From Candidatus Latescibacterota bacterium (lineage in GTDB: Bacteria; Latescibacterota; UBA2968; GCA-2709665), in the NCBI GenBank assembly GCA_965205485.1, contig OZ242180.1, forward strand, positions 2,560,001-2,624,000: a stretch of DNA of 64,000 nt. The letters are read 5' to 3'. Position 1 is the stretch's first letter; every line of letters starts with the position of its first letter. Position numbers and translations under genes: made by a program. A model generated the notes under the pieces. The model did not search any database, was not told where the DNA came from, and was given only the letters and a program-made list of their open reading frames with translations. Shown one piece after another: positions 2,231-39,358 of the stretch.

Positions 2231-3361
2231 ATGATTTCAATCGCGGCTGATTTCGAATGCGGAAACGCGAAGCATATCCGGCAGATCGCAATCGACCGGT
2301 TCCGGCTCGAAGTTGTCGGGGACAAGCCCACGTACAGTTACTACTTCTGTTTCGACGTCCGGAACGATGGGCCCGCAACGGCTGTGACCGTTGAAGTGTG
2401 GCCGGACTCGCGATTCGGCCCGGAGGGATTCGTGGTCAGCCTGCCGACCACGGTGTGGGTCGCATCCCGGAGCGACGGTCGATTCAGGCCGCTCGACCGC
2501 GAACGGGTCCGGAATACGGAGGAACCGCTGTTGATTCGCCTGAATCTGAAGGCAAACGAGACGATTCGGGTAACGAACGCATGGCCCGCGCGCTACAGCG
2601 ATACGCAAGACGCGCTCCGAAGGCTGGCGGATGAACGCGGGGACCGCTGCGAGGCATTTACCATTGGCAAATCGGTGCAGGGGCGGGACATCACCGGAAT
2701 CCGGACCGGCGCGCCCGGCAAGCCCCGGATTCTGTGCGTGGCCGGACAGCACGCGGTCGAGTTCTCGGGCACGTGGGGGATGCTGGGCATTGCGGATTTC
2801 ATCACGTCTCTCGTTCCCGACGCCGTCGCCCTCCGGGAGCGGATACAGGTGGAGGTCCTGCCGGCGGTCAATCCCGATGGGAACGTTGCAGGCAGGAACG
2901 CGTTCAACGCCGAGGGGTTCGACATGTACCGGTCATTCGGCGAAGACCCGGAGGCGGAGGCGCCCGAAGCCCACGAGAGCCGCTTGCTATGGGACATGCT
3001 TGTAAAGGACCGGCCGGCGATGTGGATGAATATCCATGCGTACGTGGGCTGGCGGGAAAACGGAGAATACCCTTACGACGGATGGTACGAGGTGGTCGAT
3101 CCCGTCTTCGAGAATACCGATCGCGCCCGGCTGTACCAGGCCCTATGCGACACGATGCGCCTGGAGACCGACGGCATGTCCACGCACGGCAGGGCGAACG
3201 TGCATCGTGAGAATACGATGTGCTATCAGATGGCCCGCAGGCTCGGCATCCCCAGCGTATTCTATGAGCTCAACGTCGCCACGGCGGGTCCGCACGGCGC
3301 CGCCAAACGCGCGATCCACGTGTTCAAACGGGCGGTACATACGCTGCTCAACAGCGAATAA
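2231..3361 (+). CDS. M14-family zinc carboxypeptidase (cytosolic carboxypeptidase-like, with N-terminal beta domain)
   Basis: ADFECGN N-terminus, IGKSVQGRDI, GQHAVE (HxxE), VNPDG, NIHAY. Confidence 0.85.
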   Translation: MISIAADFECGNAKHIRQIAIDRFRLEVVGDKPTYSYYFCFDVRNDGPATAVTVEVWPDSRFGPEGFVVSLPTTVWVASRSDGRFRPLDRERVRNTEEPLLIRLNLKANETIRVTNAWPARYSDTQDALRRLADERGDRCEAFTIGKSVQGRDITGIRTGAPGKPRILCVAGQHAVEFSGTWGMLGIADFITSLVPDAVALRERIQVEVLPAVNPDGNVAGRNAFNAEGFDMYRSFGEDPEAEAPEAHESRLLWDMLVKDRPAMWMNIHAYVGWRENGEYPYDGWYEVVDPVFENTDRARLYQALCDTMRLETDGMSTHGRANVHRENTMCYQMARRLGIPSVFYELNVATAGPHGAAKRAIHVFKRAVHTLLNSE

Positions 3362-3399
3362 AAGGAAGAAGGAAAAAGGAAAAAGGAAGAAGGAAAAGC

Positions 3400-4090
3400 A
3401 GCGATCAGCTATCAGCCGTCAGCTGTCAGCCAAAAACGAAGAGCAAAACCAGAAACCAGTCTTCCCCAATTTCCCTGCCTACGGCGTGTTCCTTTTGAAG
3501 CGACCAAAAGGAACCAAAAGTCGCCGCTGGGCGCGGTGCCTGCCATATGCACAGCGCGAATTGGCTCACTGAATGCACATGGTCCTCCGGCCTACCGGCC
3601 ACGCAAGAACACCGAAAGCCGGCGCTGAACGGAACCACGCGCTCTGCTCTGGTCGTGCTCGCGAGAGAACTCGCGCTCGAAAGCCGAATGCCTATCTGAA
3701 AGCGAGCAATATGGCTTGGCGAAGTCTATCGGCGATGTCCGCGTCACTACATGGGCAACCACAAGGGTTGCCCCTACAAATTCAAATAGAGCGTGTCCGG
3801 TGGTTGCGTGGGGGGTTTTTCCGTGTTAATCCGTACACCTCTGTTGATCGGAAGTTCCGCGAAGGATCGAAGGCCACCCAAATACCGTTTTGGCCACTGA
3901 GGAGATTCACGGAAAAACCGGCCCCCTGCCGAAGGGCGCGCTTCTTTTTGGTCCTTTTTCGCGCATAAGAAAAAGGACGTAAATAATAGAAAAACAAAGG
4001 ATTTATGAGAAGAATATCCAGCATTCAAATGACATACATATTGTTTGCATTTCAATACGAAATCATGCCTTCGGCGTGTTCCATAAAACC
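3400..4090. repeat. Composite structured intergenic repeat, copy 1 (heptamers + terminal hairpins + GTAG REP + variable-loop stem)
   Basis: Aligns with 5645-6442 and 37825-38059/39359-39377. Hairpin GTTCCTTTTG-N7-CAAAAGGAAC at 3488-3514; stem GGTTTTTCCGTG (3814-3825) / CACGGAAAAACC (3908-3919). Confidence 0.9.
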
Positions 4091-4311
4091 GCGTAGAGAT
4101 TAGACGTTAGACTCGAAAGATTACCTGCCTTGTGAGGTTTCTTCTCCTGCCGGAGGCAAGAGGTTTAGAATATGGGGCAAGGATCTCGTCTACCGTCTAC
4201 GCTCTTACGTCTCACCGCCTTTTGGCTACAGGCCGGTCGCCCTACAAACCCGACAGGTGTATCCTGTGATACGTGTAGTGTGGAACTGAATTCGTTTGAC
4301 CACAGGAGTCC

Positions 4312-5583
4312 ATGATGGACCCGAAAAGACGCGACGTTCTTGAAAGGTACCTGTCTCGAGACTGGTATTCGGAAAAGGCGAGACAGGCCAGGATGGAGCG
4401 ATACCTGGAATGGATGGCGCGCCAGGAAAGGCCGCCCATGCGGGTTGCCGGTCCCGACCGGGGCGCCCGTGTCTTGAACGTGGGGGTGGTCGGCCTGGGA
4501 CGGGGCCGGTTCATGGCGAGATTGTGCAACCTCCTGGACCGGAGTCGGACCGTGGCGGTATGCGACGAGGTCCCGGACCTGGCGGAATACGTCGCCGACG
4601 AGCTGGACGTCCCCAGGTTCGTACCGGCGGTACGAAGACATGCTGAAGGACGACGAGGTCCGCGTGGTCGTGGTGGAGACGGGCACGGACCGGCACGGGG
4701 AGCATGCGATCCAGGCGTTGCAGGCGGGCAAGCACGTCTTTGTGGAAATGCCCCTTGCCGTCACCCTGGAGGAATGCAGGGCCATCGTCGATCTGAGCGA
4801 GGCAACCGGCCTCAAGGTGCAGATGGGAAACCAGTTGCGGTGGTATAACCGGTACGAAGCCCTTAAGAAGCTGTGCGTGGAGGGGGAGTTCGGCAAGGTG
4901 CAGTACGTGGAGGCGGAGTACAACTGCGACTACCGGCGGAGGAAGCGGTACTGGGTCGACCGTGAGCGCGAGGTGGGGATGCCGGCCGACCGGGGCTGTG
5001 AAGGTGGCATCGAGCCGCCGCTGAACGCGGCCGTGCATACCACGTTCGACACGTCGCGCTGGCTGCTGGGTGACGAGCAGATCGTCGAAGTGGAAGCATT
5101 CGGGATGCGCGGCACGAGCTTCGTCGAAGGCAGCCCGGAGGAGGGCTTCGGCGCGAATACCGGGGACGGATTCGATAGCGCGGTGGCGCTGATGAAGAGC
5201 GAGAGCGGCGTGATCGTCAAAGCGCTGCAGAGCTACGGATTCCGCCGCCCTCACCTGAACTATCTCGCGCTTTACGGAACGCTGGGATGCTACGAAGGCG
5301 AGCGGCGCAACGAGGTCGGTTCCGGATACGTCCACCTTCCCCACCGGTTTCTGAATACCGTGGAATCGGGCGATGGATGGATGGAACTGCCCCTGATAAC
5401 GGGTTCCGGGCCCGGACACCAGGGGGCGGAATTCGATATGATGCTGGACTTCTTCGATGCCATCGTCCGCGACCGCCGCCCGCTCATCGACGCGGTCCAG
5501 GCCGCGCGTTCGTGCGCTCCCGCGATCTGCGGTGAACTCGCGGCCGCGCGAGGCGAACGGGTAAGGTTCCGCAGTTCCCGTAG
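4312..5583 (+). CDS. Gfo/Idh/MocA-family NAD(P)-dependent oxidoreductase, split by apparent frameshifts at ~4618 and ~5563
   Basis: VGVVGLGRG Rossmann motif in ORF 4312; AGKHVFVEMP and GNQLRW in ORF 4640; single-base corrections give …VPRSYRRYEDMLKDD… and …VKVPQFP*. Confidence 0.8.
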
Positions 5584-5644: not shown

Positions 5645-6442
5645 GAGAGCTATCAGCTATCAGCCGTCAGCTGTCAGCCAAAAGCGAAAATCAAAGTCAA
5701 AATCCACATCTCCCCCCGGCCCGTCACACAAAGCCGTCGGCAATCAGCCAAAAACGAAGAGAAGGGCGCGCTTCTTTTTGGTCCTTTTTCTTCAAAAGCA
5801 TAACCAGAAACCCCTCTTCTCCAAATTCCCTGCCTACGGCGTGTTCCTTTTGAAGCGACCAAAAGGAACCAAAAGTCGCCGCTGGGCGCGGGGCCTGCAA
5901 TATGCACGGCGCGAATTGCCTCACGGGATGCACTTGATCCACTGGCCTGCCAACCTCGTAAACAGTCCGATCTTCAGTTCTGGACGGAATAGCGCGCTGT
6001 GCTCTGGGAGTACTCTCGACAGACCTCGCGTTCGAAAGCCGAATGCCTATCTGAAAGCGGCAATATGGCTTGGCGAAGTCTATCGGCGATGTCCGCGTCG
6101 CTACGGGCAACCACAAGGGTTGCCTCTACAAATTCAAATAGAGCGTGTCCGGTGGTTGGGTGGGGGGTTTTTCCGTGTTGATCCGTTCCGCGCCGATGTT
6201 TTGGCACACGTCAGGGAGTCGCAGGCCACCGAGTTGCATTCGTGCCACTGAGGAGATTCACGGAAAAACCGGCCCCCTGCCGAAGGGCGCCTTTTTGGTC
6301 CTTTTTCTTACGCGCATAAGAAAAAGGACGTAAATAAATAATAGAAAATAAAGGCTTTATAGAAAAGAACTGGTATACAAATAGCCAAATCAGTCGCTTG
6401 CCTCTTTATCCAAATCATGCCTGCTTCGTGTTCCTTGAAACC
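5645..6442. repeat. Composite structured intergenic repeat, copy 2
   Basis: Near-identical to copy 1 in its stems and ends; 13-bp terminal hairpin GTCCTTTTTCTTA-cgcgca-TAAGAAAAAGGAC at 6298-6329; extra fragment of the right end at 5761-5792. Confidence 0.9.
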
Positions 6443-6555: not shown

Positions 6556-8276
6556 ATGGGAAAGTTGTCCACCCTTCTTCCTTTTTCCTTCTTCCTTCTG
6601 ATTCTTGGCGGCGGGGCGGCGTACGCGGAGACGCCCCGTTTCGTCGACGTGACGGCGTCATCGGGCATTGACTTCCGGCACGTCCACGGCGGGACGGGGG
6701 AGAAGTACTTCGTGGAGACGATGGGGGCGGGTGTCGCATTCCTGGACTACAACAACGACGGCCGGCTGGACGTTTTCGCCGTCAACGGAGGGACGCTGCC
6801 CGGCTATGCCGGACCTCCCCCGAGAAACCGGCTCTACCGGAACGCCGGCGGGGGTCGCTTCTCGGACGTGACGCGGTTCGCGGGCGTGGGCGAAACGGCC
6901 TACGGCATGGGCGTCTGCGCGGGAGACTTCGACAACGACGGGCACGACGACCTCTACGTGACCTGTTACGGTCCGAACAGCCTGTTCCGGAACAACGGCG
7001 ACGGGACGTTCAGAAACGTGGCAGCCGAGGCCGGCGTGGCCGGCGATGCAGCGTGGAGCGTGGGGTGCGCCTTCCTGGACTACGACGCGGATGGATTCCT
7101 GGACCTCTACGTGGCCAACTACGTCGAATACTCGACCGCCTCCACGGAGACAGGGCTGAGGCCCTACGTTTCCCGGTCCGCACGTCTCTCGGAGGAAGGC
7201 AGGTTCTATCCGCATCCCGACAACTTCAAGGGGGCGGCGGACCGCTGTATCGCAACAACGGCGACGGGACGTTTTCGGACGTGACGGAACCGGCGGGCGT
7301 CTACAATCCCGGCGGCAAGGGAATGGGAATGGCGTGCGCCGACGTCGACGGAAATGGATTCGTGGACGTCTTCGTGGCCAACGACATGACGCCCAATTTT
7401 CTCTTTCTGAACCAGGGCGACGGGCGTTTTGTGGAGAAGGGACTTCTGTCGGGCGTGGCATACAGCGGGTCGGGCGAGCTCCAGTCCAGCATGGGCGCGG
7501 ACTTCGGCGACTTCAACCGGGACGGCCGCCTGGACCTGGCAGTCACCAATTTCAGACTGGAGGGCGCCGGGCTCTTCCGCAACGAGGGCGGGGCGCTGTT
7601 TACGGATATTTCGTCGATTTCAGGGATCAGGACCCCCACGTTTCCCCACGTGGGATGGGGAACCGGATTTCTGGACTACGACAACGATGGCTGGGCCGAT
7701 CTTCTGATGGTGCACGGCCACGTGCTGGACAACGCCGACCGGGTGGGGAGTGTCTACCACCAGCCCGGCATCCTGATGCGAAACAGGGGCGACGGCCGCT
7801 TCATCGACGTCACGCGCGAAGTGAAGGACGATCTGTCCGCGCCGGTTCCCGGCCGGGGCGCCGCCTTCGGAGACTACGACAACGACGGCGACGTGGACGT
7901 GTTCATCCTGGCGGTGAACGGTACGGCGCGGCTCCTGAGAAACGAGGTGGGCAACCGGAACCGCTGGCTGAGGATAAAGCTGGTGGGAGCAGCTCGCGGG
8001 GATCGGCAGCATCCAGGCGCCGCCGGACGCGTGTCCAACCGCAACGGCATTGGCGCCCGCGTGACGGTCTGGGCCGGCGGCAGCCGGCAGAGCCGCGAGG
8101 TCCGCAGCGGATCGAGCTATCTGTCGCAGAACGACTTCCGTCTGCATTTCGGACTCGGCAAGCACCCAGCCGCCGATTCGGTCACGGTCCGGTGGCCGGG
8201 CGGCACGGTGGACCGGTTGGGGAGCATTTCGGCCGATCGGGAGCTTGTCGTAGAGGAAGGGGAAGCGGGTCCATGA
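6556..8276 (+). CDS. CRTAC1/ASPIC-UnbV family FG-GAP repeat secreted protein; apparent frameshift at ~7245
   Basis: Signal peptide, ETMGAGVAFLDYNNDG, multiple DxDxDG repeats, C-terminal SYLSQNDFRLHFGLG…VRWPGG; the two ORFs join at GAADR/LYRNNGDG. Confidence 0.85.
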
Positions 8277-37824: not shown

Positions 37825-38059
37825 ATATCCACGCCGCCACGTGGGCAACCACAAGGGTTACCCCTACAGATCCAATTACGGCGCGTCCGGTCCGGGGGTT
37901 GGGGGTTTTTCCGTGTTAATCCGTCCAGCACGTTTGCACTGGTACCGGTGATAGGTTCGTAGGCCACACACGTCACAATTTCGCCACTGAGGGGGTTCAC
38001 GGAAAAACCGGCCCCCCGCCGAGGGGCGCGCTTCTTTTTGGTCCTTTTTCTTCCGCGCA
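37825..38059. repeat. Composite structured repeat, copy 3 (right half only; continues at 39359-39377 after the IS)
   Basis: REP at 37843-37867; stem 37904-37915 / 37998-38009; terminal hairpin split by IS481. Confidence 0.9.
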
Positions 38060-39358
38060 TGTACGGACCGGGTACATGGGTAACAGGTGTTCGGGTACAT
38101 AGGTAACACTTTTTGATGTGTTGTGCAGCAATTTATGTGTCATCATATTCCCGAAGGTCGAACGCACCGACGCGGTGGTTACAGAAGAAGACGTCGACGC
38201 ATCCATCTTTGGTTGTAGGCCGTACCGCTACGTGCAGGCCCCTCAGGGCGTTGCTGACACGAAGGCTGTGTCCTTGATAGCGGAAGTAGCCGTTCGCGCC
38301 CACCTTCCGCACGTGGTCGCCAGGGCCGTATTCGATCGGCGGCAACGCATCAGGGAACGCACGGTGAGAGGGTTCATAGCGGGTGGAGGGCACCTCGAGG
38401 TCCAGCGCTTCGTGGGGACGCTCGAAGTTGTAGACGTCGCGCCAGTGGTCGAACGCGTCCTGGCACTGGGGCAACGTGGACCAGGCGCGATAGGCGATCA
38501 CCTCCGCGTTCAACGTGCGGTGAAAGCGTTCCTCCTTGCCCTGGGTCTGCGGGTGATACGGACGACAGCGTGTCAGGCGGATGCCCAGGCGGATCAGCCA
38601 GATCGAGATACGCGAGACGGTACCGCCTTTTGTACCCCACCACGGCGCGCCATTGTCGCTCAGGATCTTGTCGGGCAGCCCATAGGTCCTGAAGATCTGT
38701 GTGAGGGCGGGTTGAACCGTGTCGCCTCTCTGATTGGGGCAGGCCACCAACCCCACGGAGAACCGCGAGTGGTCATCCAGCACCGTCAGCGGATGGCAGG
38801 CCCCGCGCCGCAACGGGAAGTGCCCCTTGAAGTCCATCTGCCACAGCGCATTCGGTACGGGATGCTCAAAGCGCTGCCACGGTTGACGCTCTGGACACGG
38901 TTCCGGAGATAGCCGGCCGCGGCGACGCAGGATCTGTGTAATGGTGCTTAACGCCGGCACCTCCCGTTCTCCCAGATCCTTCAACCGTCGCGACAGCTTG
39001 CGAGCACCCCACGCCGGGTGTTTATCTCGCAGTGCGATGATTTTATCTTCGACCGCTTTCGACGTGCGGTGCGGAATCGTTCCAGGACACCTGCTGCGGT
39101 CCTCGAAGTCACAACACGCGTCCTGTTTATAGCGGGACAGCCACTTGTATCCCGTCTTGCGGCTGATGCCATACCGTTCACACAACCTGCTGACATTGGC
39201 GCCTTCACGATGGGCGAAATCAACGAACTCTGATCGAGCAGACACTGCGGACACCTCGGGCCAGGCATTGTAGACCTCCTTTCTACAGGTCTACAATAAC
39301 ACTTTCAACTGTCACCCATGTGCCCGAACATGTGTTACCTATCTGCCCGGTCTATACA
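38060..39358 (-). mobile_element. IS481-family insertion sequence, 1299 bp, with 6-bp target duplication CGCGCA
   Basis: TGT…ACA ends; 26-bp imperfect IRs TGTACGGACCGGGTACATGGGTAACA / TGTTACCTATCTGCCCGGTCTATACA with subterminal repeats; CGCGCA at 38054-38059 and 39359-39364. Confidence 0.95.
38133..39268 (-). CDS. IS481-family DDE transposase; apparent 1-nt deletion just after the start codon
   Basis: HTH (GISRKTGYKWL), WQMDFKG, LDDHSRF, SDNG, QTQGKEERFHRTL, YNFERPHEAL. AGGAGG precedes ATG 39268, which reads MPWPEVS if one C is restored. Confidence 0.93.

Follow-up and report, generated by a model that had tools for sequence, protein, structure and literature searches.

The closest described relatives in behaviour of the repeat reported here are the REPINs of Pseudomonas fluorescens SBW25 and their RAYT genes (Bertels and Rainey 2011; PMC3337134, PMC3116915; bioRxiv 10.1101/2021.07.10.451892). 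In the accessible text of these papers, REPIN spacers differ everywhere yet keep their length, and length and hairpin formation are named as their critical features (PMC3116915). Other repeats bearing on the present one are the TIRtron TIR families and GTAG dimers (Di Nocera et al. 2013, PMC3733652), the complex intergenic repeats R6, R26 and R200 of P. fluorescens (Silby et al. 2009, PMC2718517), the NTS/SRM hairpins of the Ssn GIY-YIG nucleases (Chenal et al. 2025, PMC11893778) and, among guide RNAs, TIGR arrays and IS110 bridge RNAs (Faure et al. 2025, PMC12045711). What we say of these systems goes as far as the accessible text of each source.

We describe here the L/R family, about sixty non-coding hairpin repeats spread through the intergenic DNA of a Latescibacterota genome, which is a 5.13-Mb single contig, 97% complete (G000 in the coordinates below). 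The window is the whole stretch of 64,000 nucleotides analysed (G000:C1:2560001–2624000). No account of the family was found in the openly accessible literature searched. A sequence-only reading of the window had seen in it a dispersed element whose invariant stems enclose variable loops of fixed length.

Structure and census of the L and R modules

The family consists of two modules of 180–250 bp. Each combines a terminal hairpin and a small GC hairpin with a long stem, which closes a loop of 70–82 nt with a few short conserved motifs; in R the stem has 12 bp and the loop 82 nt. The R profile matches L copies on the opposite strand with E values from 2e-3 to 5e-8 (nhmmer), and the reciprocal match is found too; L is thus an inverted, diverged homologue of R. 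The two have loop motifs in common and their ends are 71% complementary over 28 nt. Modules occur singly, as an L..R pair or as R followed by L.

The first element of the window (3462–3989) has an M14 peptidase gene on one side and a Gfo/Idh/MocA oxidoreductase gene on the other, and stands beyond a run of heptamer repeats (3400–3432, plus strand), a separate passenger family which borders many L modules. Its L module (3462–3713, plus strand, nhmmer) has a near-invariant anchor (3474–3537), containing a GCC-TNC-GGC mini-hairpin (3477–3485), which is a GNA triloop when read on the minus strand, and a terminal hairpin (3488–3514). The L main stem (3549–3647) has its arms at 3549–3558 and 3638–3647 and encloses a variable loop with conserved motifs at fixed spacing. 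A GTAG-type REP on the minus strand (3753–3777), an independent passenger of a RAYT-associated family, is followed by the R module (3809–3989, plus strand). Here the main stem (3814–3919) has 12-bp arms at 3814–3825 and 3908–3919 round the 82-nt loop (3826–3907); then come the small GC hairpin (3921–3937), with two significantly covarying pairs and a terminator-like character on the minus strand, and the terminal hairpin (3946–3983), related to that of L. The stretch at 3984–4210 (plus strand), often found downstream of R, comprises an AT-rich spacer, a remnant L start (4066–4082) and a shared module, M3.

The second element precedes an FG-GAP gene and has, on the plus strand, an R-end fragment (5761–5793), an L module (5817–6061) and an R module of the 81-nt loop subfamily (6161–6339; arms 6166–6177 and 6259–6270), with a GTAG REP (6105–6129) on the minus strand. 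At the third site a GTAG REP (37843–37867, minus strand) stands before an R module without L (37899–38071, plus strand), whose terminal hairpin is broken at about 38060. In that hairpin sits an element with an IS481-type transposase gene (38133–39254, minus strand; Pfam rve, LZ_Tnp_IS481), which is a secondary insertion and not a partner of L/R.

Most of what the sequence-only reading had described of this architecture was recovered: the perfect 12-bp arms at 3814–3919, 6166–6270 and 37904–38009; the 36-nt and 15/14/15-nt segments between them, the 36-mers matching at 14, 15 and 18 of 36 positions with 10 invariant; left halves that differ at 38 of 150 positions with no gap; and the internal REP between inverted, related terminal hairpins at both ends. 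Its three copies all have the R stem and the REP, but only two have L.

The loop or arm of the R terminal hairpin hosts, as secondary passengers, three different insertion sequences, IS481-type, IS110 and a third which we take to be IS1182-like, at 38060–39254 of the window, at G000:C1:1923080, 822873 and 1768300 and at L498:360–1990; the IS481-type and the putative IS1182-like element each occupy two sites in the source genome. An element of ~117 bp from another family lies in or near the R left arm at unrelated sites (G006 C19, G004 C20, G008). The oxidoreductase and FG-GAP genes seem frameshifted in the window (at 4312–4640 and 7200–7334) and are read through in relatives; the base at 4617 is absent from the contigs of two of four runs.

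R with both exact arms is found 33 times in the 5.13-Mb genome, far beyond chance, and a profile of the interior alone gives about 43 R loci (47 profile matches less three cross-matches to L, one locus being split in two). There are 18 L anchors, 17 of them with a full loop. None of the ~43 R and 18 L modules falls within a called gene, the calls coming from a simple in-house model, and no gene was found between L and R. The long L–R interiors of relatives hold other repeats or a putative group II intron piece, and no transposase. The many intergenic copies, the empty orthologous sites and the lack of a gene between L and R support a non-autonomous element, one of the options of the sequence-only reading. 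A fragment that we take to be group II intron-like interrupts a heptamer run between L and R in G008 (L135:1420–2357).

An exact match to the L hairpin pattern is present in 14 of 168 genomes of the phylum, every one from the same genus, and diverged L modules occur in three genomes from another family. Relatives bearing the element are recorded as Candidatus Latescibacterota and some as Gemmatimonadota. Related hairpin ends were seen, adjoining ordinary genes, in five Bacillota and alphaproteobacterial records and on 15 viral contigs, and a metagenome scan gave 89 loci of which six are true R modules and the others chance. Phage and plasmid collections held no match to the element (blastn, E 1), and viral contigs scanned with the L and R anchor patterns gave none for either. 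Nor does the window contain an Rfam family at the gathering threshold, and an E-value search of 3350–4300 gave at best E 1.7. We set aside, for want of an Rfam match and for wrong architecture, a likeness to the c-di-GMP-I riboswitch, to retron ncRNA, to attC sites and to IS91 ends.

Elements of a comparable kind were noticed elsewhere. In Eubacteriales records (L256, L263) an element of ~430 bp is present in two copies; it has palindromic anchors and a related hairpin at its end, and its variable interior is nearly the same length in both. The hairpin-ended elements with a related end motif on viral contigs (L542–L556) stand between structural genes of phages with apparently diverse hosts, and no cognate gene is in view.

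Conserved stems and variable loops

Stems are kept by compensatory change. Over 122 aligned R copies from 12 genomes (the 124 copies less those of 79 and 100 nt), mean identity is 97% in the arms against 61% in the loops. Relatives' copies were retrieved with arm patterns and are thus biased toward intact arms; the interior-only search of the source genome avoids this bias, and the copies with 'mismatched' arms that it found are subfamilies with compensatory arms. Fully paired variants of the arm core number 96, 7 and 4 among 119 copies. Under a tree-based null, two pairs of the small hairpin covary (E 0 and 0.03) and no pair of the loop does so significantly (best E 0.23). The 18 L anchors have at most about five departures from their consensus in 1152 positions; set against the window copy there are 20 mismatches, 16–17 of them at one position.

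In orthologous alignments, where some pairs are counted twice via overlapping loci and genes were called by the in-house model, substitutions per site are 0.22 at four-fold sites, 0.125 in plain intergenic DNA, 0.022 in the R arms and 0.004 in the L anchor. By this measure conservation of the anchors exceeds that of plain intergenic DNA about 6- to 30-fold. Selection on the stems, offered by the sequence-only reading as the mundane alternative, is supported, and so is selection on the length of the loop.

On the plus strand of R, G–T outnumbers A–C by 74 to 20, and the TNC loop of the GCC-TNC-GGC start is kept in 142 of 144 L starts, both counts being from related, non-independent copies. The mini-hairpin of the L start, of 3 bp, is a GNA triloop on the same strand as the G–T excess of R plus, and GNA triloops are stable in DNA according to the accessible text of two papers (PMC3201870, PMC13037366). 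This points to a module that folds as one strand (R plus, equal to L minus), which is more likely to be DNA than RNA. The loops themselves fold no better than shuffles (mean z -0.2 to +0.4 in 60 copies).

Loop length and motif spacing are kept. The interior of R is 82 nt long in 86 of 124 copies and 81 nt in 32, with two copies each of 83 and 80 nt and one each of 79 and 100 nt; one R copy of the source genome has a 190-nt internal duplication. In 29 disjoint close pairs there are 191 substitutions in the loops, six in the arms and two gap columns, against 12.4 indels expected from plain intergenic DNA (P 4e-4), about sixfold fewer. In the other family the motifs are spaced by 27–28 nt (six of six) and 35–36 nt (four of six), against 27 and 34–35 nt here, for the six loci matched of 13 given, with filler that is unrelated as judged by eye. 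Length is therefore constrained as the sequence-only reading had it, but not strictly fixed. This constraint is the most interesting property of the repeat, yet it has a precedent in REPINs, whose spacers fold into a hairpin whereas the R loop does not.

The substitutions in the loops look like ordinary drift. Among the close pairs transitions (95) and transversions (96) are almost equal in number, and neither a base nor a strand is favoured; changes that could be polarised are A>N 41, T>N 31, C>N 43 and G>N 47; and in orthologous alignments R loops have a transition/transversion ratio of 1.06, against 1.05 for plain intergenic DNA. Flat base, strand and codon-phase tests uphold the earlier remark that no adenine or codon-position bias is clear. 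The loops are strongly tree-like (parsimony 1193 steps against 2023–2058 for shuffled data) and form inherited subfamilies, and about a dozen of their positions are nearly invariant. Tree-like divergence with normal indel rates was among the refuting conditions named by the sequence-only reading; the divergence is tree-like, and the indels fall about sixfold below those of plain intergenic DNA.

Individual sites gain a copy, lose it or have it replaced. Twenty of the 22 orthologous R sites given for sister species were scored. Six kept their allele (0, 2, 3, 3, 10 and 11 differences) and 14 had another (15–38 differences), each nearer to a paralogue in the source genome than to its orthologue. 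Retained loops thus differ at 0–11 of 82 positions, between flanks that are 86–96% identical, and as four-fold sites average 0.22 per site they change no faster than neutral DNA. These figures, with the spectrum above, tell against the local hypermutation that had been suggested for the loops. At the M14 peptidase site, eight of 16 relatives have a short empty spacer, six other repeats and two an R module; in G006 the loop is identical beside a 96% identical gene, in G010 it is of a different subfamily and in G004 the contig ends there. A cluster of ten substitutions at 3586–3623 was considered as an allele and rejected, as it is the paralogue at G000:C1:1384728.

No genome holds identical paralogues; the minimum is two differences, and recent faithful copying is therefore not seen. 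The 81-nt subfamily is star-like, its copies being 2–7 differences apart with arms almost unchanged; a tandem triplicate (L246) has similar flanks and different loops; and in one pair of paralogues 10 of 38 positions in the loop are different. One loop is found with different downstream hairpins, and in 17 complete elements L and R loops are not correlated (Mantel r 0.09, p 0.22); they are inherited separately.

Genome distribution and the search for a partner gene

The 47 loci are centred at 1.545 Mb, with dnaA at 1.663 Mb (Rayleigh p 5e-8), and in G008, G009 and G012 the copies lie mostly near the genome's own dnaA, as judged by eye. Relative to the flanking genes, 44 R copies are orientated 18 ++, 12 --, 8 -+ and 6 +-, with no bias. 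The GTAG REP, heptamer runs and CCCTCTC doublets are also commoner on the side of the chromosome that has dnaA and rare round the GC-skew switch at 4.1 Mb, and the repeat-rich zone that includes L/R covers about 1.0–2.6 Mb of G000.

A look for copies adjoining a HUH/RAYT, reverse transcriptase (RT) or recombinase gene had been advised, and no cognate gene was found. Y1/RAYT (PF01797) has no match in the source genome; it matches in 20 of 31 genomes, and none of 25 Y1 loci scanned has L/R beside it. The source genome, the only one searched for it, has no RT match. Nop (PF01798) is found in none of 15 genomes, with a Pfam model that may miss Tas proteins. IS110 (PF02371) has no match in the source genome and is absent from 10 of 15 genomes; among 18 IS110 loci one touches L/R, as an insertion into the hairpin. 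DUF559 has no match in the source genome, and L/R is near two of 28 such loci, 0.6 and about 1.2 kb off; it is near one of 30 four-helix bundle loci, about 1.3 kb off, and near three of 31 GIY-YIG, Y2 and TnpB loci taken together, beside uvrC-sized genes. Among 409 ORFs next to 339 modules no mobile-type gene recurs, as judged by eye, and none of the empty/filled comparisons listed has clean ends or a target duplication.

The other repeats of the genus (L440, L450, L469, L537, L062–L068, L560–L568) each flank a small gene of their own, the types being a four-helix bundle, DUF559, at least three RAYT-like types and a short GIY-YIG gene. In G015 a RAYT-like gene (L537) has the GTAG REP around it; its match to NF047646 (E 3e-12) falls short of the family cut-off. 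At L440 a four-helix-bundle gene (PF05635) lies between heptamer runs, and in relatives CCCTCTC doublets are tied to DUF559 genes and other palindromes to short GIY-YIG genes. Some REPIN spacers of the genus repeat the start of the RAYT gene. Matches to Y1/RAYT-like domains lie in open frames of ~1200 aa (L060, L061 and L074, in G011 and G008, and G009:C1:4547970). In the source genome a short GIY-YIG gene (L345:1153–1743, G000:C1:1885400–1886000) seems frameshifted and is flanked by its own palindromic repeat.

Explanations and comparison with known systems

We consider it probable that L/R is a non-autonomous, gene-less, REPIN/BIME-like single-strand hairpin repeat, spread by copying and recombination. 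The two versions of the module, L and R, would both be old, and each occurs by itself or paired with the other in inverted orientation. A folded single strand, most likely ssDNA, would be the target of a protein that requires stems and motifs at the right distance, whatever the filler. New copies would be rare, made either by a HUH/RAYT-like enzyme that nicks in trans or through recombination of neighbouring repeats at the near-identical anchors they share. Selection or repair would act on stems, motifs and distance, and long persistence with slow copying could leave every loop unique, as for REPIN spacers. Conservation of the arms in place is not explained by selection at the copying stage alone and therefore needs host-level selection, conversion or hairpin repair. 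A bolder, rather doubtful reading takes in the related hairpin ends of the Bacillota and alphaproteobacterial records and of the viral contigs: orphan single-strand hairpin replicators may form an undescribed class that is widespread, with L/R as its Latescibacterota branch. They would lack a transposase of their own and be copied preferentially near the origin, and a host or free-standing enzyme would gauge the length of the loop as a ruler does, motif spacing being retained across bacterial families while the filler is free.

In-place conservation of arms and anchors (0.004–0.022 against 0.125 per site) would also be expected of a structured RNA or cis-element maintained by the host (a terminator, an mRNA-stabilising or a protein-binding hairpin), spread mainly by recombination and with the loop as a spacer between RNA–protein contacts. 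The excess of G–T over A–C on one strand, the single-stranded motifs conserved across families and the surplus of terminator-like matches at the small hairpin (11 for the region, 4.1 for shuffles) agree with it. We nevertheless regard it as unlikely: the R copies have no orientation bias to flanking genes, their sites are empty in many relatives, there is no Rfam match, and the mini-hairpin is a triloop of 3 bp and of DNA type (PMC3201870, PMC13037366, in their accessible text), with only one pair as an RNA UNCG loop. There is a smaller chance still that loops were diversified in bursts during copying, by error-prone gap filling or reverse transcription inside the stem, and were stable later. 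Such bursts would suit the lack of identical paralogues, the star-like 81-nt subfamily with almost no differences in its arms, the loops of the tandem triplicate and the pair with 10 of 38 positions changed, but the spectrum equals that of plain intergenic DNA with no A or strand bias, about a dozen positions hardly vary, the genome has no RT match, and the same pattern is expected from slow copying with conversion.

The sequence-only reading had also entertained a programmable guide, and as a bipartite guide RNA of bridge-RNA, TIGR or box C/D type scattered in the genome this is largely refuted and very improbable. The segments are 21 nt long, not 8–12 nt; they are homologous (51–66% mean identity), tree-like and not arranged in arrays. 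The 36-mers have no excess of matches elsewhere in the genome, and no Nop-domain, IS110 or RT gene was found there, the Nop search being made with a model that may miss Tas proteins. A closed stem with two variable segments between conserved motifs does resemble such a guide, and the consensus has CCA-N21-TGA twice with a 39-nt period, but this period falls short of significance (p 0.11), and no more than 41–56 of 84 copies keep the boxes. Loops match their own flanks slightly better than other flanks (8.58 against 8.39 nt, permutation p 0.03), but own-flank matches of at least 11 nt number four against 3.1 expected. We give next to no credence to a decayed protein-coding repeat fragment whose length is kept by its reading frame; one reverse frame of R is stop-free in 59–60 of 84 copies, but pN/pS is 0.64–1.23 in all 18 frame tests, neither codon phase nor stop depletion carries a coding signal, and the common length of 82 is not a multiple of three.

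An undescribed repeat family of this kind gives unusually clean data on how small bacterial repeats persist and spread: it combines conserved anchors, loops that drift in sequence and keep their length, allele swapping and origin clustering, and no cognate transposase could be detected. The family shows, besides, that an invariant stem plus a fixed-length variable loop need not imply a guide RNA. If a protein that binds the module were found, the catalogue entry would become a new mechanism.

Enterobacterial BIMEs, like L/R, form mosaics in which several types of repeat cluster and into which IS elements are drawn; their units differ from L/R and their spacers are conserved motifs, not long variable loops. 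The R200 family of P. fluorescens reportedly ends in a related hairpin. A classical DDE MITE has short near-perfect TIRs and a target-site duplication, whereas the L/R ends are 71% complementary and no duplication is seen among the comparisons listed. A diversity-generating retroelement has adenine-specific variation, a template repeat and an RT, and L/R has no A bias and no RT match. TIGR arrays and bridge RNAs resemble L/R in their set-length variable segments between short motifs, sometimes inside a stem, but TIGR-Tas systems are tandem arrays with 8–12-nt spacers between CCA/UG boxes, whereas L/R has no array, poorly kept boxes and 21-nt homologous segments (PMC12045711, accessible text). 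No Tas or IS110 partner was found for L/R; the IS110 bridge RNA sits in the non-coding end of IS110 with loops that match target and donor, and here there is no PF02371 in the genome and negligible match to the flanks. The Ssn/SRM system has multi-copy ssDNA hairpin repeats as L/R does, and the genus has short GIY-YIG genes with repeats of their own, but the NTS consensus as published is unlike L/R and no short GIY-YIG gene flanked by L/R was found.

Like L/R, the TIRtron TIRs are long, inverted, non-REP units of moderate copy number, found as singles, dimers and groups with dimer spacers of similar length and different sequence; they are defined by a flanking tyrosine transposase gene, and none was found beside L/R. 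R6, R26 and R200 are intergenic families of 177–352 bp, several with inverted repeats round a variable core and several without an assigned transposase, as in L/R. The comparison with these and the TIR families is one of published descriptions and not of consensus sequences, so a relative could be among them (PMC2718517, PMC3733652).

The likeness to REPINs is the fullest. As described in the accessible accounts, they are non-autonomous and extragenic, present in tens to hundreds of copies. Their inverted ends are conserved, and the spacer between them differs from copy to copy but keeps a characteristic length; turnover is slow, and higher-order clusters are formed. L/R has all of these properties. 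REPIN ends are REP palindromes, whereas the L/R arms are non-palindromic 12-mers, plain stem halves, and the GTAG REP is a separate passenger. The REPIN spacer folds the whole element into a hairpin, and the L/R loop has a folding z of about 0 in 60 copies. REPIN and TIRtron copies flank their cognate RAYT or TIRYT gene, and none was found for L/R in the genomes sampled. L/R has in addition terminal and small hairpins and two inverted homologous modules. L/R thus behaves as a REPIN/BIME-type repeat and, as it has no REP arms, no hairpin spacer and no RAYT was found, is not a REPIN by definition. The mundane alternative that the sequence-only reading had doubted is already in print (PMC3337134, PMC3116915): as far as these sources go, variable spacers of kept length have been described for REPINs.
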